Shown: positions 2,761-39,335 of the stretch, in pieces | Position numbering within the stretch: position 1 is the stretch's first letter | How the letters are laid out: every line of letters begins with the position of its first letter | Assembly: GCA_039028495.1 (NCBI GenBank) | Contig: JBCCHY010000002.1 | Coordinates: 1 to 50,682, forward strand | Reading direction: 5' to 3' | DNA: 50,682 nucleotides | Source of the DNA: Patescibacteria group bacterium | GTDB lineage: Bacteria > Patescibacteriota > Saccharimonadia > Saccharimonadales > VXPC01 | Made by a program: the position numbers and the translations under genes | The notes under the pieces: model-generated | What the model saw: only the letters and a program-made list of their open reading frames with translations | Told to the model about the DNA's origin: nothing | The model's database searches: none

Positions 2761-3357
2761 TTAGTAGTCGATGCCGATTTTGGCTAGGACTCCGTCGTCG
2801 TAGTGATGTTTGAGTTTAGCCATCTCTGTGACTATATCAGCATGTTCGACGAGCTTTTCCGGGAAGTTCCTGCCGGTTAGACATAGCGATACGCCTTGCT
2901 GCCTGGCAGTCGATATTAGGTCAGCTAGCGCGCCCTCTGGTAGTAGCCCGTCGTGAACTGCATTATTGATCTCGTCACAGATGACGACGTCGTAACTCGA
3001 TTGGATAGCTTCTTCCGCTTTGGTCAGTGTATCTTTAGCGGCTTGCTTATGCTGCTTTTCGGTTATTTCCTTGGCTGACATGTCACCGGCGTTGTAGAAG
3101 CCCTTGCCGCCTTTGTAGAAAAGCAGTCTATCCCCGTAGGTTTTTTCTATCTCGGCTATAAACTGATGTTCACTCACCTGCCAGTGTTTTATGAACTGAA
3201 GAAAAGCGACCGACTTACCTGCACCGAGAGCTCTTACTAGCAGGCCAAGGCTAGCGCTTGTTTTGCCCTTGCCCTCCCCTGTATAGACAACAATGGTTGC
3301 GTTAGATGAGCTTGTATTCACGTAGGTAGCCGTCAATCCCTTGGCGGTCAAAACCAA
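2761..3357 (-). CDS. cobO: ATP:cob(I)alamin adenosyltransferase, CobO/BtuR family
   Basis: VVYTGEGKGKTSASLGLLVRALGAG...FLQFIK is a P-loop typical of CobA/CobO/BtuR. DEINNA and the HHYD tail are also present. The TTG start overlaps the upstream gene. Confidence 0.75.
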   Translation of the reverse strand: MVLTAKGLTATYVNTSSSNATIVVYTGEGKGKTSASLGLLVRALGAGKSVAFLQFIKHWQVSEHQFIAEIEKTYGDRLLFYKGGKGFYNAGDMSAKEITEKQHKQAAKDTLTKAEEAIQSSYDVVICDEINNAVHDGLLPEGALADLISTARQQGVSLCLTGRNFPEKLVEHADIVTEMAKLKHHYDDGVLAKIGIDY

Positions 3358-3565
3358 TCACCAGGTCTTTGCCGCCGAACATGGTTACAGGTACTCCTGC
3401 TTGGCCTGTTTTTTCTCGTAACCACATGGCAGCATCAGGCTCTTCGTCAATATCTACGACGGTGAATTCTACACCCTTGTCGGATAGATATGCTTTGACC
3501 ATTTTACAAAAGCCACACCACTGTGCGCTGAATACTTTTACTTGTATATTTTCATCCGTGTCCAT
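3302..3565 (-). CDS. Glutaredoxin/NrdH-like small redox protein
   Basis: It is 87 aa, with a VFSAQWCGFCK CxxC active site in a thioredoxin fold, and GVPV...G downstream. Confidence 0.8.
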   Translation of the reverse strand: MDTDENIQVKVFSAQWCGFCKMVKAYLSDKGVEFTVVDIDEEPDAAMWLREKTGQAGVPVTMFGGKDLVIGFDRQGIDGYLREYKLI

Positions 3566-25841: not shown

Positions 25842-27065
25842 TTATTTTTCTACAAAGGTAATGGCAAAGCCAGTTGTATTGCTGCGGCCTGTGCGTCCTA
25901 TGCGATGGGTGTAGTCTTCGTAGCTGCCCGGAGTGTCATAGTTGATGACGTGTGTTATGCCATCGACGTCGATACCTCTGGCCGCAACGTCTGTCGCAAC
26001 CAGGATGCTTATCTCGTCTTTTTTAAGCTTGTCTAGGGCGCGTTTACGCTGGTTCTGCGACTTGTCCCCATGGATCGCATCTGATTTGAACCCGCGCTCG
26101 CGTAGGTCCCTGCTCAGGCGATCACTGAATCTTTTTGTATCGCAGAAAATAAGTGTTTTGCCGACCCCTTCGCCTATCAGCAGATCGTGTAGGAGGTCTA
26201 TTTTCTCGTCTTTGTGCCCGTAGTATTGGACATCTTGCTCGACATTGTCGCTCGTGTTCCCTGTTGTAGCCTGTATTTTGATTGGATCGCTCGAGAACTG
26301 ACCTATTAATGATTCAATCTGCGGCTGCATAGTTGCTGAAAAGAATAATGACTGTCTATCGTCTGGGGTGCTTGAGAGTATGGAGCGTATGTCGTTGACA
26401 AAGCCCATATCTAGCATTCGGTCAACTTCGTCCAGTACGGCTATGTCGCTATCATGTAGTTGCAGGCTACCCCGCTCTAGATGGTCCATTATCCTACCTG
26501 GAGTTCCAATTACTAGGTGGTGGTTTCTACTCAGATCTCGCAGCTGTGGCTTGATGTTAACACCGCCAATGAGCAGTGCATCGTATATACCTAGACCTTT
26601 ACTAATGCGGCGCGCTTCTTCTTGTATCTGCTGAGCTAGCTCCCTAGTTGGGGCTATGACGATCGCCTTTTTAGCGCGGTTTGTGAGGAGTTTGTTAATC
26701 GTTGGGATTAAAAACGCCATTGTTTTACCAGTGCCGGTGTTAGCGAGGCCAACTAGGTCTTTGCCAGACATGGCATGCGGAATCGCTTGGTCCTGGATTT
26801 TAGTAGGTTTCTTGATACCGTTTTGTAGCAGGTTGTTCTTTAGGCCCTGGTGGACCTTTAGGTTTTCATAGGAATTGTCGCTGACGTATGTAGTTTGTTG
26901 AAGTGGCTTAGCCTTCTTAACAAACCTCTTGGGGTCTATGTAGGCCTTTTTGGGTCCTTTTTTATTGAAGCTCTGGACTCTGCCATTACGACGAAAGCCG
27001 GAGCTTTGTTTCTTTGCGCCGAACGCACTTCTGTTACCCCGCCTGGGGGCTTGTCTATTTCTCAT
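25842..27065 (-). CDS. DEAD-box ATP-dependent RNA helicase
   Basis: It has a Q-motif context plus motif I ANTGTGKT, PTRELA, motif II DEVD, SAT and HRIGRTGR. The N-terminal tail is basic. Confidence 0.9.
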   Translation of the reverse strand: MRNRQAPRRGNRSAFGAKKQSSGFRRNGRVQSFNKKGPKKAYIDPKRFVKKAKPLQQTTYVSDNSYENLKVHQGLKNNLLQNGIKKPTKIQDQAIPHAMSGKDLVGLANTGTGKTMAFLIPTINKLLTNRAKKAIVIAPTRELAQQIQEEARRISKGLGIYDALLIGGVNIKPQLRDLSRNHHLVIGTPGRIMDHLERGSLQLHDSDIAVLDEVDRMLDMGFVNDIRSILSSTPDDRQSLFFSATMQPQIESLIGQFSSDPIKIQATTGNTSDNVEQDVQYYGHKDEKIDLLHDLLIGEGVGKTLIFCDTKRFSDRLSRDLRERGFKSDAIHGDKSQNQRKRALDKLKKDEISILVATDVAARGIDVDGITHVINYDTPGSYEDYTHRIGRTGRSNTTGFAITFVEK

Positions 27066-27198
27066 ATTATTCTTTCCTGGTTTTTTTGGTATGGAATGCT
27101 TATGTTAAGAAGCTCTTCCAACGAAAACCTGGCTCACCAGTTAAAGAGTTTCTCTTAAGTCGTAGACTACTCTATCATGAATTCAGATATTTACAAGC

Positions 27199-28503
27199 TT
27201 AAGTAGTAAGAAGCTGACGTTTGAGTGCCTCGTAGTCGGCAGGTATTTCGGTGACCGATTCAGGCAGGTGCGATACACGTCCAATGAGCTCGGCTGTGTC
27301 GACTACTATATCTGCTCTTTCCATAACACCCGGGAACTTCTCGGGTGCTGCAGTAGATACGATCAGATCATTGTCTGTAGGGTCTCTTTCTGACGCGTGC
27401 CAGGCCACTGCTGTATGTGGATCGAGGACGTACCCATGTTGTTCGTGAACATTTCTGATCGCTGTGATTACGTCGTGGTTGGTAGTTGCCCCGGTGGCCA
27501 CGATTTTCTCGGCCGGTGTATCTTTCCTTTTGTCTCGATTGCCAATGCGCTCATCTATCTCTAGGCCCGATTTTTCGACTGCTCTCAGAAGGCGTGGTAA
27601 GTTGTTGGGGCGTGACACGTCCATAGCGCTTGAGTAGGTTGACATAGAGCCAAAATCCGCTCTGTTTTGAGCAACATGGTTATGGAATGTTGCATTTCGA
27701 TTGTTAGCGACTACCACAGAACTAATCGGTATACCCATAGCTTCAGCCATAACACAAGCCGTCACATTACCCATGTTACCTGTTGGTACAACTATTCTGT
27801 GGGTTTCACCTGTCTGGGCGTGCGCATATGCGTAGTAGATGATTTGAGGTAGCAAGCGGCCGATGTTTATTGAATTCGCGCTCGTGAGGTTTAGCTCCTG
27901 TAATTCAGGGTCATCGAACGCCAGCTTTACCATGTCCTGACAGTCGTCAAACGATCCACTCACCCTATATGTAGTTACGTTAGCGTGGGTATGGGTTAGC
28001 TGCTGCTCCTGGACATCACTTACGCGTCCATTTGGATACAGTACTACCATGTTTGTCCGATCAGCATTACCGAAACCATGAGCCATTGCGCCGCCGGTAT
28101 CACCCGATGTTGCGGTCAAGATCGTGCAGGTATCACCGGAGCTTGTGTAGTGAGCCATAAAGCCTGACAGGTATCTGGCCGCGACGTCTTTAAACGCAGC
28201 TGTTGGACCATGAAATAGCTCGAGCACCTTTTTGTCGCCGACATCGACTATATCTATCGGGAAGTTCGAGGCGTTTTCAACTATTCGGTCTAACTGATCA
28301 TCTGTCATCTCACTATGATCTATAAAGGGCCGTAGTACTAGCTTCGCGACATCATGTAGCGCAGCTCCCTTGATGTTTATGCTGGCAAAGATTTCAGGAA
28401 TTGATTCTGGAACGTATAGTGAGCGGTCTGGAGGGAGCCCCTGTAGTACTGCTTCGCCGAAGCTAACTGTAGTGTCTGGTGTTTGTATGCTGTGATATCT
28501 CAT
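27199..28503 (-). CDS. thrC: Threonine synthase
   Basis: ELFHGPTAAFKDVA contains the PLP lysine context. TATSGDTGGA and the long-form ThrC architecture (434 aa) are also present. Confidence 0.85.
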   Translation of the reverse strand: MRYHSIQTPDTTVSFGEAVLQGLPPDRSLYVPESIPEIFASINIKGAALHDVAKLVLRPFIDHSEMTDDQLDRIVENASNFPIDIVDVGDKKVLELFHGPTAAFKDVAARYLSGFMAHYTSSGDTCTILTATSGDTGGAMAHGFGNADRTNMVVLYPNGRVSDVQEQQLTHTHANVTTYRVSGSFDDCQDMVKLAFDDPELQELNLTSANSINIGRLLPQIIYYAYAHAQTGETHRIVVPTGNMGNVTACVMAEAMGIPISSVVVANNRNATFHNHVAQNRADFGSMSTYSSAMDVSRPNNLPRLLRAVEKSGLEIDERIGNRDKRKDTPAEKIVATGATTNHDVITAIRNVHEQHGYVLDPHTAVAWHASERDPTDNDLIVSTAAPEKFPGVMERADIVVDTAELIGRVSHLPESVTEIPADYEALKRQLLTT

Positions 28504-28577
28504 GGCCCTAGACTATCACGCAGTACTAACATGTCTAAGCATGTCCGTGATCAATAGATTTACAGATCCCTTTGGGG

Positions 28578-28583
28578 TAGAAT
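28578..28583 (+). promoter_or_regulatory. -10 box TAGAAT upstream of the tRNA-like fragment / tRNA-Gln transcription unit
   Basis: In ggTAGAATatttgggcATTCGGAG, the predicted TSS at ~28590 lies just upstream of the 5' tRNA-fragment copy. Confidence 0.35.
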
Positions 28584-28591
28584 ATTTGGGC

Positions 28592-28623
28592 ATTCGGAGA
28601 TCGTCTAATGGTAGGTCCTGGGT
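28592..28623 (+). pseudogene. Truncated 5' copy of tRNA-Gln (acceptor 5' strand, D-arm and anticodon-stem 5' strand only)
   Basis: Positions 28592-28615 are 24/24 identical to 28773-28796 (ATTCGGAGATCGTCTAATGGTAGG). The next 8 nt are similar with one deletion. No matching anticodon 3' strand, T-arm or acceptor 3' strand follows. Confidence 0.7.
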
Positions 28624-28774
28624 GAGATATGCCAGTGGCATATCGCAAGGAGACTTTCTTCATCAAGCTTGCTTGATAGAACGAAATCTCGGGCCCGCGG
28701 GACGTGGGTTGGTCCTTTAGGACCAAAACTTGTATTCTCTCGAGGATTGTCGTGTAAAATAAACCAAATTATAT

Positions 28775-28848
28775 TCGGAGATCGTCTAATGGTAGGACAC
28801 TGGGTTTTGGTCCCAGCAATCTAGGTTCGATCCCTAGTCTCCGAGCCA
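28775..28848 (+). tRNA. tRNA-Gln (anticodon UUG), CCA encoded
   Basis: Hand-folded cloverleaf. The acceptor is TCGGAGA/TCTCCGA (U1-A72, as in bacterial tRNA-Gln). The D-arm is GTCT-AATGGTA-GGAC. The anticodon arm is CTGGG-TTTTGGT-CCCAG. The variable loop is CAAT. The T-arm is CTAGG-TTCGATC-CCTAG. The discriminator is G, followed by CCA. Confidence 0.9.
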
Positions 28849-28888
28849 AATCTAAGAGGCCGACATTCATGTCGGTTCTTTAGATTTT
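28849..28888 (+). terminator. Hairpin plus T-run downstream of tRNA-Gln
   Basis: The core stem is ccgaca/tgtcgg with loop ttca. It extends imperfectly (aatctaagagg/ttctttagatt) and ends in TTTT. Confidence 0.6.
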
Positions 28889-28889
28889 G

Positions 28890-28916
28890 TAGAGACTAAA
28901 GGGATCGAACCCTTGG
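28890..28916 (-). pseudogene. Inverted partial copy of the tRNA-Gln 3' half (T-arm plus acceptor 3' strand)
   Basis: The minus strand reads AAGGGTTCGATCCCTTTAGTCTCTAC, compared with the tRNA's CTAGGTTCGATCCCTAGTCTCCGAG. No D-arm or anticodon arm can be folded upstream of it. Confidence 0.6.
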
Positions 28917-29080
28917 GTCGGAGACTGCCAGTGGCAGTCGACGTTTTCCTTGCTTGACCGACGAGCATTTTTAGTCCAGTGGACTGAAAATGTTGCCGAG
29001 GAGTAATATATGCTTATTCTCTAGTCTCCGGTATAAGCTTACGCTTGTTGTTTGACTGGTTGATGTTACTATTGCCTTGT

Positions 29081-30244
29081 ATGACAAGTAAGCGGAATAC
29101 TGATATATTAACGCTCTTTGAAGAGGATATGAGTTCTGAAGGACGGGTCCAGGCATTTGAACGAGCTGCAGAACAAGCCAGAGACTCCTTGGGTAAGATA
29201 GCAACACCAGAAAGTGTTGAAGCTATCAATGCCAGCTTCAGACTGCGGTTTATATTCAATTCCCACGGAGATGAGGTCCATGCTGCTCAGTCAACAGCCG
29301 AGGCGGCAGGATCTTTTATCACATTCGTTGAGAATGCAAATGACCGGGAGGTTGCAGATAGTGATGCTTTTGCAGGTTCGGTAAAGAGCGCTTTTGACCT
29401 TAGGTTCAATGGTGCTCAACCTTTTAAGCCAGCCTTTGTACCTGGTCAGACAAACATGTGGGCATACTGGAGGGATCGAGGCCTCCTTGGCCACGGGAGT
29501 ATAATCGCTCCTGTGGATATAAGAGCTTACTCCTATAGACTCCTTAATGCGTTGCTGGGTAGTGACTACAACGAGGGGTTCCTTAACAGCAGACTTACAC
29601 CAGAAGCCCTGCGGGGACAGCCACTTGATGAACTAATAGAAGATAGGGCGCTCCATGGGGCGTTAGTCATGCATTCTAACGCAGTGAGAGAGCTGACAAG
29701 TACTAGGCAAATTCTTGGGACTCTATTACAGATCCAAAAAACGGAGGCTGGTGATAACGCATTTAGAGATAATCAATCGGATCATATTAGGGCGTTGGCG
29801 AACGCTGCCAGAGTTGAATCATCAGTCCTGCCAAGTAGCGTTATTTATGGTACGGCTCATCAAGGGATGGTAGATATTTATCAAGAGCTGAACATTCAGC
29901 ATGATGTAGTTTTCCCAGGTGCCAGATACGAACCTCCATTAATAGATCAATTCTTTGGGGCGCATACAAAAGGCCCCAGCGAAACAGAATTACATAGATA
30001 TGCATCTCAGTTAGTGCTGGAGAACATTCTCTGGAATGCTGTTTTTTCAAACCTAGTCTTGGAACATGGCTACATAACCGCTGCACATACTCCTGACTTA
30101 TGGAAGGTTATTAATGGACTTGCTAGCGAAGAGGCTACTCTTGCTGATCTTGAGGCTATACATGCAGACTTCAGGCAGAATCCTGTCTCTGCATTAAGGC
30201 TGATTGAATCTGCAGGTGTAGAGTTCATAAAAGTTGGTGCTTAA
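29081..30244 (+). CDS. Hypothetical protein (~387 aa), no recognised domain
   Basis: It is a long intact ORF. The listed TTG start at 29045 is doubtful: TGtTACTAT (29064-29072) lies 8 nt upstream of ATG 29081. Confidence 0.5.
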   Translation: MTSKRNTDILTLFEEDMSSEGRVQAFERAAEQARDSLGKIATPESVEAINASFRLRFIFNSHGDEVHAAQSTAEAAGSFITFVENANDREVADSDAFAGSVKSAFDLRFNGAQPFKPAFVPGQTNMWAYWRDRGLLGHGSIIAPVDIRAYSYRLLNALLGSDYNEGFLNSRLTPEALRGQPLDELIEDRALHGALVMHSNAVRELTSTRQILGTLLQIQKTEAGDNAFRDNQSDHIRALANAARVESSVLPSSVIYGTAHQGMVDIYQELNIQHDVVFPGARYEPPLIDQFFGAHTKGPSETELHRYASQLVLENILWNAVFSNLVLEHGYITAAHTPDLWKVINGLASEEATLADLEAIHADFRQNPVSALRLIESAGVEFIKVGA

Positions 30245-38171: not shown

Positions 38172-38779
38172 TAGAACTCTCGTCTTCCCTCTAGGGCTCT
38201 AGAGAGTGTCAGTTGGTCGGCATACTCTAGGTCTACTCCAATAGGCAGGCCTTGGGCTAGTCTAGTGAGCTTGACATCAACGCCTTCGAGCGTTGATTGG
38301 ACTAGCATTGCTGTTGATTCCCCTTCTACGCTCGCGTTTGTAGCTAGAATAACCTCGACCACTTTGTCATCCACAATACGTTCCTTGAGCTCGGCAATTT
38401 TGAGGCTTTCTGGCCCAACACCATCAATTGGGCTTAATAGCCCACCGAGGACATGATAAGTGCCAGTGTAGGATTTAGTTGATTCAATGGCTAGGATATC
38501 AAAGGGCTCTGCGACGACCATAACGAGTGTTTTATCGCGTCGTGGATCTGTGTAGAGCTCGGATAGCTCGTCGTCGCTACCTATAATTGCAAAGGTTTTT
38601 TTACAGTAGCCTATGCTGTCATGTAGGTCAGCGAGGGCGCCAGCGAGTAGCTTGGCATTTCTAGGCTGGCCCTTGAGTAGTGAGTATGCGTAGCGTTCAG
38701 CACTGCGTTCTCCTACCCCGGGCAAGACCCGCAAGGCTTCGATGAGTTTAGTTACTGATTTCGGCAGTATCCTGGCCAT
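38171..38779 (-). CDS. recR: Recombination protein RecR (Cys4 zinc finger not conserved)
   Basis: It has the HhH motif LRVLPGVGERSAERYA, the Toprim segment VMVVAEPFDILAIE..YTGTYHVLGG and EVILATNASVEGESTA. Only one Cys sits where CxxC...CxxC is expected. Confidence 0.85.
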   Translation of the reverse strand: MARILPKSVTKLIEALRVLPGVGERSAERYAYSLLKGQPRNAKLLAGALADLHDSIGYCKKTFAIIGSDDELSELYTDPRRDKTLVMVVAEPFDILAIESTKSYTGTYHVLGGLLSPIDGVGPESLKIAELKERIVDDKVVEVILATNASVEGESTAMLVQSTLEGVDVKLTRLAQGLPIGVDLEYADQLTLSRALEGRREF

Positions 38780-38996
38780 ATTGTGCAGTCCTGTTTTTAA
38801 TTATCCTTTGCGCTCTGTGGCGCCTGTAGACGTTTGCTATCTTCTGGGCGGTTCGTGCGACTGGGTTGTCGTCATGGAAGCCCAAGAATGTATCTGGGTA
38901 GAGTCTTAGTGCTCTATCAACGACGTATTGTGCACTAACCTCCCCGATACGTTCCTCGGGTACCATTAGGGCTCTCTCTAGCGATTCTTTGCTCAA
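38748..38996 (-). CDS. Possible small protein (82 aa, TTG start) between ybaB and recR
   Basis: This ORF fills an otherwise 220-nt gap and overlaps the recR start by 32 nt. It has no motif or SD, so it may be non-coding. Confidence 0.25.
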   Translation of the reverse strand: MSKESLERALMVPEERIGEVSAQYVVDRALRLYPDTFLGFHDDNPVARTAQKIANVYRRHRAQRIIKNRTAQYGQDTAEISN

Positions 38997-38999
38997 AGC

Positions 39000-39293
39000 T
39001 TAGAGACCAAGATTCCCCAGCTGCCCCATTAGAGGCTGCATTTTCTCTGCAGCTAGTTTTTGGCTCTCAGCGATTGCTTCTTTGACGGCGTCTTCTACCC
39101 AGCCTTCTAGTTCGCCTATGTCAGTTAGGTCAACTGCATCCGGATCAATGTGAATCTTTTTTATCTTTTGTTCACCCGTGATTTCAACAACGACTGCTCC
39201 GTCTCCACCCTCTATTTCTAGAACTTTTTTCTTGAGTTCTTTCTGTACTTTTTTGACCTGCATCAGTAGCTTGGCCTGGTCCATCTTGCCCAT
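39000..39293 (-). CDS. ybaB: YbaB/EbfC nucleoid-associated protein
   Basis: It is 97 aa. The QVKKVQKEL...GGDGAVVVEITG...I..I.IDP pattern fits the family, as does its position between dnaX and recR. Confidence 0.85.
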   Translation of the reverse strand: MGKMDQAKLLMQVKKVQKELKKKVLEIEGGDGAVVVEITGEQKIKKIHIDPDAVDLTDIGELEGWVEDAVKEAIAESQKLAAEKMQPLMGQLGNLGL

Positions 39294-39335
39294 GTGGAAT
39301 CTCCCTGTATATTTCGCCTCTTATTTTAGCATCTA

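Follow-up and report, generated by a model that had tools for sequence, protein, structure and literature searches.

This study concerns the surroundings of a transfer RNA (tRNA) gene in a 50,682-nt stretch of DNA (contig JBCCHY010000002.1), which as a whole we call the window. The window is a compact, gene-dense piece of prokaryotic chromosome with ~47% GC, and its sole tRNA gene, a tRNA-Gln(UUG) found by ARAGORN, lies inside the gap 28504-29083. This gap of ~580 nt is the largest non-coding stretch in the window. It is flanked on the left by a threonine synthase gene (27199-28503, minus strand, assigned by Pfam) and on the right by the gene for a conserved hypothetical protein, whose true start we judge by homologue alignment to be the ATG at 29084. 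Around the tRNA gene lie partial copies of its own sequence and two versions of a hairpin-rich unit, here termed E_up and E_down. The features are as follows:

28559-28586, + strand: promoter-like site P1, TTTACA-16-AATATT (consensus scan, sigma-70-like)
28592-28623, + strand: direct copy of the tRNA-Gln 5' part (BLAST and local alignment; score 24, tRNA 1-31)
28619-28759, + strand: E_up, hairpin-rich unit (local alignment against E_down)
28626-28644, + strand: E_up hairpin, GATATGCC-AGT-GGCATATC
28663-28678, + strand: E_up hairpin, ATCAAGC-TT-GCTTGAT
28709-28726, + strand: E_up hairpin, TTGGTCC-TTTA-GGACCAA
28747-28775, + strand: promoter-like site P2, TTGTCG-17-TATATT (consensus scan)
28775-28848, + strand: intact tRNA-Gln(UUG), CCA encoded (ARAGORN; Rfam RF00005, 60.8 bits)
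28849-28886, + strand: terminator hairpin with its core at 28858-28877 (GGCCGACA-TTCA-TGTCGGTT) and a T-rich tail behind it (sequence and fold)
28890-28926, - strand: inverted copy of the tRNA 3' part, directly beyond the terminator (exact matches and alignment)
28914-29036, + strand: E_down, second hairpin-rich unit (local alignment against E_up)
28923-28939, + strand: E_down hairpin, GACTGCC-AGT-GGCAGTC
28951-28967, + strand: E_down hairpin (fold)
28966-28992, + strand: E_down hairpin with apex CCAGTGG (28973-28985 extended; fold)
29002-29030, + strand: degenerate direct copy of the tRNA 3' part, 21/29 identical (72%; alignment)

Partial tRNA copies and the duplicated unit E

The best-preserved fragment is the 5' copy upstream of the intact gene. 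As the original prediction had stated, 28592-28615 and 28773-28796 are identical at 24/24 positions (two leader nucleotides plus tRNA positions 1-22), and the two are spaced 181 nt apart. This match has a BLAST E-value of 1e-7 within the window and none is expected in shuffles. Past 28615, TC replaces ACA, after which CTGGGT reproduces the 5' strand of the anticodon stem and the first loop base, and the copy ends at 28623, in the anticodon loop. The TAGAAT box that had been recorded ahead of the copy is found at 28578-28583, within P1 and just 5' of the copy.

The inverted copy on the other side of the gene comprises the acceptor strand (28890-28897), an exact 12-nt match to the T arm (28900-28911) and a 13/14 match to AGTCTCCGAGCCAA (acceptor 3' strand, discriminator and CCA, in a second copy) at 28913-28926. 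The third TCGGAGA noted earlier at 28918 is also there, at 28918-28924, and belongs to this inverted 3'-end copy. Aligned to the tRNA, the reverse complement of 28886-28955 scores 19 (z=7.8). The inverted repetition described in the original prediction is thereby upheld, whereas the palindrome length of ~95 nt given with it is not: RNAfold predicts a single palindrome of 136 nt, 28798-28933, about the terminator loop (-71 kcal/mol, z=-5.9), with the terminator at its centre. A weaker extension of the inverted copy toward 28950 suggests that it could span most of the tRNA. A full-length inverted pseudo-tRNA at 28886-28950 is kept as a suggestion only: its T arm and acceptor core are solid, the extension adds little score, and similar total scores of ~16 arise by chance at other loci, inside a conserved coding gene.

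A further copy of the tRNA 3' part, degenerate and in direct orientation, scores 13 (P=0.005), near the 99th percentile of real-sequence controls. The match is exact over the final 10 nt, CTAGTCTCCG, at 29021-29030, 173 nt downstream of the tRNA; the repeat itself had been seen correctly before and its position, 29031-29040, had been misplaced by a 10-nt slip. Besides the 5' copy, the flanks contain four further exact tRNA matches of at least 9 nt (10, 10, 12 and 9 nt). Four or more such matches occur in 0/2000 dinucleotide shuffles (three or more, P=0.0005), and the same count in 194 other 506-nt segments of the window reaches a maximum of 2. The set of tRNA-derived pieces is non-random, well beyond chance.

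The sequence between the 5' copy and the tRNA (28624-28772), described earlier as a 180-nt insert that could not be assigned by eye, can now be placed. Alignment of E_up with E_down newly establishes it as a diverged direct copy of the downstream region. The two units are colinear and in direct orientation, with a score of 24, 90/113 ungapped columns identical and many indels; the score stands at z=6.1 relative to dinucleotide shuffles and exceeds those of all 588 real-sequence controls (maximum 20). Local alignment was needed for E_up and the tRNA unit, as global MAFFT alignment of the upstream region with the tRNA unit was uninformative. Both units start with TGGGT-(CG)-GAGA followed by a hairpin with a TGCCAGTGGCA core, have CTTGCTTGA in common in the middle, and finish in the tRNA-3'-like TATTCTCT(C/-)(G)AG. 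With regard to miniature inverted-repeat transposable elements (MITEs) and repetitive extragenic palindromic (REP) elements, E_down has an 8-bp terminal inverted repeat, CGGAGACT (28919-28926) and AGTCTCCG (29023-29030), and E exists in two copies only within the 50.7-kb window, both at the tRNA-Gln locus.

The three CC-AGT-GG hairpins reported at 28626-28644, 28923-28939 and 28973-28985 are all present. CCAGTGG occurs seven times in the window, and three of these occurrences fall within 351 nt at the locus, all on the + strand, where ~0.04 occurrences would be expected (P roughly 1e-5, by arithmetic from the shuffle mean). Two of the three hairpins are homologous copies, because E_up and E_down are copies of one unit. 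Two differences separate the stems of hairpin 1 in these copies: a compensated pair (A-T to C-G) and a paired deletion. Opposite the third CC-AGT-GG hairpin, which is in E_down, E_up carries a different, GC-rich hairpin region. But for one change, the apex CCAGTGG is the reverse complement of ACACTGG in the tRNA, and it pairs with this segment in the palindrome; the motif itself may be tRNA-derived, to judge from this match. Similarly, the hairpin at 28709-28726 includes a copy of the tRNA anticodon-loop segment, with a 10-nt inverted match at 28720-28729. The GGTCC/GGACC and GAGACT/AGTCTC segments, which had been proposed to offer mutually exclusive pairings, are found in the sequence. Compared with shuffles, the flanks fold at z=-3.0 upstream and at -4.3 and -4.9 downstream, on the two strands. 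These values identify neither a transcript nor a strand, because palindromes fold well on both strands.

P1 precedes the 5' copy, spaced as a tRNA promoter would be, and is predicted to be, probably, the original promoter of the tRNA. Use of P2 for the full tRNA is doubtful because its -10 hexamer overlaps tRNA base 1. P1 with the 5' copy and E_up may thus represent a promoter and a putative leader of ~180 nt that is cut off the live tRNA-Gln, and this may be the one part of the earlier precursor reading that is still attractive. A further promoter-like site at 29081-29109 was set aside as a chance match that sits within the downstream gene starting at ATG 29084.

Known RNA families, mobile elements and genomic setting

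Searches of both strands with Rfam 15 returned only RF00005 (tRNA) at gathering thresholds; in E-value mode nothing was found at E<0.5, and all other hits were far below the gathering score. Permissive hits to RNAI, a plant microRNA and an archaeal small nucleolar RNA were discarded as noise (E 0.5-1.1). A group I intron, a transfer-messenger RNA (tmRNA) and a T-box were likewise rejected, each having no Rfam support, and ARAGORN finds no tmRNA. The two programs, whose use had been recommended with the original prediction, find only the tRNA on either strand. The small open reading frames (ORFs) overlapping the region, including the 157-nt insert, have no Pfam match, in agreement with the earlier view that the two small ORFs listed there are artefacts.

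No integrase, excisionase, transposase, endonuclease or cargo gene was detected with Pfam within ~8 kb on either side (20 ORFs, 20.4-40.5 kb). These 20 neighbouring ORFs are housekeeping only, and include thrC, a DEAD helicase, an aldo-keto reductase, CobW, CysRS, RecR and others. The tRNA 3' 21-mer has no match in viral contigs, and the 5' 22-mer matches only a phage tRNA array. This array (L087 1711-4153; IMGVR_UViG_3300025703_000011), on a phage-like contig, consists of 17 tRNA genes, and the first 26 nt of its tRNA-Gln(CUG) are those of the window tRNA-Gln (87% identity overall). The hairpin motif GAGA-N1-2-TGCCAGTGGCA has more than 120 matches in viral contigs, which we regard as chance, with no similarity past the seed.

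The closest homologues of both flanking proteins are 46-47% identical, and the named ones belong to Candidatus Saccharibacteria or Saccharimonadales. A scan of a genome collection with ThrC gave, among the matches listed, only Flavobacteriia-type ones of ~35-40% identity. By the affinities of the named homologues, the host is a Saccharibacteria-like bacterium of the Candidate Phyla Radiation (CPR/Patescibacteria). Its ThrC is a long-form threonine synthase with nearest relatives only 46-47% identical, and this low identity suggests a deep lineage with few sequenced relatives. Homologues of ThrC and of the 399-aa neighbour protein (46-47% identical at most) never adjoin a tRNA-Gln, and no synteny was found among them. 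Elsewhere in the window, 38780-39335 is the second-largest stretch free of ORFs of at least 100 aa; it holds two shorter minus-strand ORFs (38748-38996 and 39000-39293) and is probably coding.

An independent Logan contig (L081, from SRR22824298) is 100% identical to window 27000-28845 and spans the 5' copy and the insert. It terminates at window position 28845, inside the tRNA and directly before the long palindrome.

Debris at other tRNA loci

A 20-nt piece of the tRNA 5' end was scanned against metagenome contigs, which yielded 120 loci with a single match each. None of these 120 tRNA-Gln loci shares the flanks of the window locus, and no similarity to E was found in any fetched locus except L081, which is identical to the window. 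The nearest tRNA relatives (L185, L163 and L165, with tRNAs 87-90% identical) have a bare gene and terminator, with a recognisable promoter in L185, and these bare genes argue against a conserved flanking RNA.

Flanking self-copies are nevertheless found at 17/120 tRNA-Gln loci by exact-match criteria and at 23/120 by local alignment, for which the threshold was the 99th percentile of shuffles. Other tRNAs on the same contigs are affected too (5/81 by exact matches, 15/81 by local alignment), and the process is therefore not specific to tRNA-Gln. At each locus, the debris is built from that locus's own tRNA sequence. In L121 the order is that of the window, with the tRNA, a terminator, an inverted acceptor and T arm, hairpins and an 18-nt direct 3'-end copy; L142, L143, L145 and L180 share some parts of this arrangement, L142 and L180 having inverted degenerate copies. 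The tRNA is followed by tandem units, each of which closes with the tRNA 3' end, at L139, L143, L145 and L083.

The last of these, at 3038-3500 beside a tRNA-Asn in a complete Candidatus Saccharibacteria genome (CP064992.1), has two tandem units downstream of the gene, each made of the 5' part of the T arm, a hairpin insert of ~60 nt and the final 16-17 nt of the tRNA, CCA included. A terminator-like hairpin comes after unit 1. The protein encoded at window 29084-30244 has a homologue just downstream, in the same placement as in the window.

Upstream 5' copies followed by perfect hairpins occur at L107 (two tandem units), L121, L134, L168 and L191; the 5' copy of L180, at -46, lacks them. An ORF of ~80-85 aa for a GIY-YIG protein is also found at six tRNA-Gln loci and at one tRNA-Gly locus, where it ends 0-40 nt upstream of a co-oriented tRNA:

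L191 828-1082, and L154, L161, L179, L182 and L168, co-oriented with the tRNA: GIY-YIG ORF next to tRNA-Gln (Pfam PF01541, E=5e-18 for L191)
L169 3866-4123, co-oriented with the tRNA: GIY-YIG ORF next to tRNA-Gly (tblastn)

Just upstream of the GIY-YIG ORF, four of these loci (L191, L154, L168 and L169) have a displaced 5' copy of 12-34 nt and two GC-rich hairpins. Among the fetched loci, 10/13 GIY-YIG tblastn hits fall within 600 nt of a tRNA.

Another group of loci contains nested tRNA genes. A tRNA-Gln is split in L092, L153 and L110 by an insertion that measures exactly 118 nt and is made of two arms and a second, complete tRNA-Gln of the same anticodon. The insertion starts 27 nt before the inner tRNA-Gln and stops 19 nt after it, and its arms are conserved and pair with each other (CCTGCCCGCC...GCAGGCGGG). 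In L092 and L153 it lies in the anticodon loop (36|37), in L110 in the T loop (56|57); L091 has an analogous 184-nt insertion in its D loop. In silico removal of the insertion from these four loci restores a perfect outer cloverleaf that is called by ARAGORN. The acceptor stems of the inner and outer tRNAs differ. L180 has a complete tRNA nested in a degenerate outer tRNA, and the window, with a 5' half and a 3' remnant as its outermost pieces, may resemble the degenerate end of this nested series, as judged from the sequence.

We further note GC-rich hairpin insertions of ~30-41 nt, often ending in GGCGGG, in the D loop or D stem at L121, L168, L108, L161 and L191/L154. Their hosts are tRNA 5' copies or outer tRNA halves; in L121 the host is the D loop of the upstream 5' copy.

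Origin of the locus and comparison with known systems

We favour the view that the region consists of one functional tRNA-Gln amid scars of DNA-level duplication and rearrangement and holds no separate RNA gene (probability about 0.58), with tRNA fragments that are probably non-functional. An ancestral unit would have contained the tRNA-Gln, its terminator, the inverted tRNA 3' part and a spacer E ending in the short direct 3'-end copy, and would have been duplicated in tandem. The upstream copy would then have undergone a 113-nt deletion between two TGGGT microhomologies, located in the anticodon stem/loop and immediately ahead of E. Such a deletion would have taken the terminator and the inverted fragment along with tRNA positions 33-74, and would have left P1, tRNA 1-31 and E_up in this order directly 5' of the intact gene. 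Both marks of a tandem duplication followed by deletion, colinear direct homology and a microhomology breakpoint, are present: TGGGT is found at 28619 (the junction of the 5' copy and E_up), at 28801 (the anticodon stem/loop of the tRNA) and at 28914 (just before E_down). A 113-nt deletion would account for the 181-nt spacing of the tRNA starts as against the 295-nt spacing of the E starts.

Fold-back or template-switch synthesis at hairpins is an established mutational mechanism, and the inverted fragment may be an extension of the palindrome around the terminator hairpin that arose in this way. We propose this origin because the fragment abuts the terminator and forms one 136-nt palindrome with the tRNA 3' part. 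The apices of the three CC-AGT-GG hairpins would be alike largely through common descent. Judging from the other loci only, the likely driver would be that tRNA genes of these bacteria are repeatedly broken or receive insertions, events that elsewhere go along with small GIY-YIG endonuclease cassettes and with inserted DNA bringing a replacement tRNA. By this analogy, endonuclease-induced breakage as the cause is plausible but unproven.

Several points weigh against local duplication. The history is a reconstruction in which no series is observed, because the best homologues of the neighbours are 46-47% identical and non-syntenic, and no duplication intermediate was seen. The 5' copy is identical at 24/24 positions whereas E is ~80% identical (ungapped columns). 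Were the two of the same age, the probability of this would be ~0.8^24 = 0.005, so that the 5' copy would have to have been converted by the live gene next to it, kept by selection or affected by a later event. The 13-nt junction at 28760-28772 is unlike the sequence after E_down, and the tandem model is to that extent not clean. Hairpin 1 is perfectly paired in both copies despite their divergence, which also fits a functional structure, and a streamlined genome retains ~500 nt here, in the largest non-coding gap of the window, which also fits function. The driver stands by analogy only, because the window has no endonuclease or mobile-element gene. Finally, agreement with a second assembly is limited to the upstream half, up to 28845.

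One alternative, which we consider unlikely while taking it seriously, is that a tRNA-targeting cassette with its own tRNA-Gln (or the 5' part of one) split the resident tRNA-Gln and then decayed, with later loss of its endonuclease gene. The window shows the cassette-type layout of a displaced 5' copy (28592-28623), hairpins (28626-28726) and a co-oriented tRNA (28775), which is common to L191, L154, L168, L169, L107 and L121. Its outermost pieces are ordered and oriented as a split outer gene would be (5' half 28594-28623, 3' remnant 29002-29030). Intact examples exist elsewhere, both as nested tRNAs (L092, L153 and L110 with 118 nt, L091 with 184 nt) and in the form 5' copy, hairpins, GIY-YIG gene and tRNA (L191, L154, L168 and L169), and the degenerate nested case of L180 resembles the window. 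Against this, a brute-force splice test with ARAGORN, which was positive for L091, L092, L110 and L153, could restore no outer tRNA in the window. The arms around the inner tRNA do not pair, and no CCTGCCCGCC/GCAGGCGGG motif, conserved at the ends of the intact insertions, is found near the window tRNA; its flanks are direct copies and are not complementary. Direct copies such as E_up and E_down are not predicted by an insertion, and tblastn with the L191 GIY-YIG protein has no match in the window at E up to 1. We rank the specific cassette model below plain local duplication because no outer tRNA is restorable, no arms pair and no endonuclease gene is present in the window.

We regard it as rather improbable that the flanks encode a functional RNA, either a structured leader or trailer controlling processing, folding or termination of tRNA-Gln or a small RNA encoded by E on either strand. 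One variant of this proposal is a decoy 5' half that competes for the acceptor 3' strand. The folding beyond that of shuffles (z=-3.0; -4.3 and -4.9), the perfect conservation of the 5' copy relative to E, the compensated change in hairpin 1 and the size of the gap in a compact genome would all fit, as would the promoter-like sites, P1 standing ahead of the 5' copy and P2 overlapping the start of the tRNA. The folding, however, points to no transcript or strand, since palindromes fold on both, and the long palindrome would destroy the cloverleaf if transcribed. Two copies also give almost no power to detect covariation. The undescribed small RNA that had been considered earlier is not supported: there is no Rfam match, E has no homologue in the 120 related tRNA-Gln loci, and the nearest tRNA relatives have bare genes, an outcome that the original prediction had itself counted against conserved flanks.

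Classical attachment-site (att) scars, left by repeated integration and excision of a prophage or integrative element through a tyrosine or serine integrase, with attL/attR remnants, appear very improbable. tRNA genes are common integration sites with tRNA fragments as a common by-product (PMC9897764), a 10-nt direct 3'-end copy lies 173 nt downstream, and an archaeal precedent has a 5' fragment 1.8 kb upstream with a recombinase element in between (PMC3293823). In the window, on the other hand, no integrase, excisionase or cargo was found within ~8 kb on each side, and the fragments are merely 50-180 nt away from the gene. The best copy is of the 5' end and lies upstream, one copy is inverted, and the tRNA 3' end is on no viral contig. 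The DNA bounded by the 3'-end direct repeat is a local duplicate and not cargo. Of the att-site scars proposed originally, DNA-level copies of the tRNA are therefore retained, and the classical integrase picture is given up for want of an integrase and in view of the upstream 5' copy and the inverted copy.

An assembly artefact, through mis-joined strain-variant reads or a collapsed repeat, can be dismissed as next to negligible: the window is apparently metagenome-derived and L081 stops at 28845, inside the tRNA and before the palindrome, but the 5' copy and E_up are identical in that independent contig, the copies are diverged, unlike the output of repeat collapse or chimeras, and the same grammar recurs in many unrelated assemblies.

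On a broader scale, we raise the tentative possibility that the nest belongs, in decayed form, to an undescribed class of insertions targeting tRNA genes in uncultured CPR-type bacteria. Such insertions might bring a replacement tRNA or 5' part, sometimes with a GIY-YIG gene and perfect hairpins, and leave the resident gene as flanking halves. Equally speculatively, the intact members of the class could be the complete tRNA-Gln genes found in the anticodon, T or D loop of a second, still perfect tRNA-Gln. If the class is real, the question is raised whether the interrupted outer tRNAs are still used. We found nothing specific on nested or interrupted tRNA genes in these bacteria in the literature, where coverage was incomplete and absence is weak evidence. 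There is greater novelty in these related loci than at the window locus itself. For annotation, the odd non-coding region of ~580 nt is best treated as one tRNA gene plus debris, and neither a new RNA nor small ORFs should be entered there. In these reduced genomes, duplication and insertion appear to recur at tRNA genes, where the tRNA is kept intact and halves and hairpins remain.

The debris can be compared with several known systems. Integrative elements reportedly leave tRNA gene fragments behind, and are said normally to displace the 3' part of the tRNA gene downstream; in the window the best-preserved fragment is instead the 5' part, upstream, at 24/24 identity. Element integration commonly yields tRNA gene fragments as a by-product (van der Gulik et al. 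2023, PMC9897764), and the window similarly has partial tRNA copies beside an intact gene as direct repeats, arising as DNA-level by-products. It differs in having neither integrase nor cargo, in copies that are tens to hundreds of nucleotides off rather than kilobases, in a best copy that is of the 5' end and upstream, and in the presence of an inverted copy and a duplicated spacer. The tRNA-Thr of Caldiarchaeum subterraneum has a 5' fragment upstream of an intact copy, ascribed to mobile-element insertion or recombination (Sugahara et al. 2012, PMC3293823), just as the window has a 5' fragment upstream of an intact gene for the same tRNA. That case is archaeal, its 1.8-kb gap encodes a recombinase and its intact gene has introns, whereas the gap in the window is 157 nt of hairpins with no ORF.

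Local duplication is known from tyrT of E. coli, where 178-bp repeats each contain the last ~19 nt of tRNA-Tyr. The downstream spacer in the window likewise closes with a short copy of the tRNA 3' end in direct orientation, and tyrT-like units are tandemly repeated at L083, L139, L143 and L145. Unlike tyrT, the window has one unit downstream and a second upstream of the gene, together with inverted and 5' copies.

In fungal mitochondria, endonuclease insertions bring a replacement gene end. Free-standing GIY-YIG endonucleases reside in phage tRNA clusters (T4 SegB, PMC2330249), and the related loci described here resemble this in carrying a small GIY-YIG gene directly upstream of the tRNA, with the displaced 5' part further upstream. 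The window differs from this arrangement in lacking the endonuclease gene, and cleavage of tRNA-Gln DNA would be hypothetical. The SegB literature describes no displaced 5' copy with hairpins.

The ribosomal RNA (rRNA) genes of CPR bacteria contain many non-intron insertions, some encoding GIY-YIG proteins and many being short (<200 bp) with no ORF (Tsurumaki et al. 2024, PMC11270868), which sit at the tops or bases of stem-loops (PMC11270868). That work covers rRNA genes only, and the word 'tRNA' is absent from its text. The loci described here share with these insertions the same bacterial radiation and the interruption of structural RNA genes, and the short hairpin insertions in tRNA copies and outer halves resemble, at small scale, the short ORF-less sequences in rRNA (PMC11270868); the pieces in the window differ in flanking an uninterrupted tRNA. 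If confirmed, the nested tRNAs and GIY-YIG cassettes would extend CPR rRNA insertion sequences to tRNA genes and provide a bacterial model for the splitting or interruption of tRNA genes, and the putative insertion class would be the tRNA counterpart of the CPR rRNA insertions.

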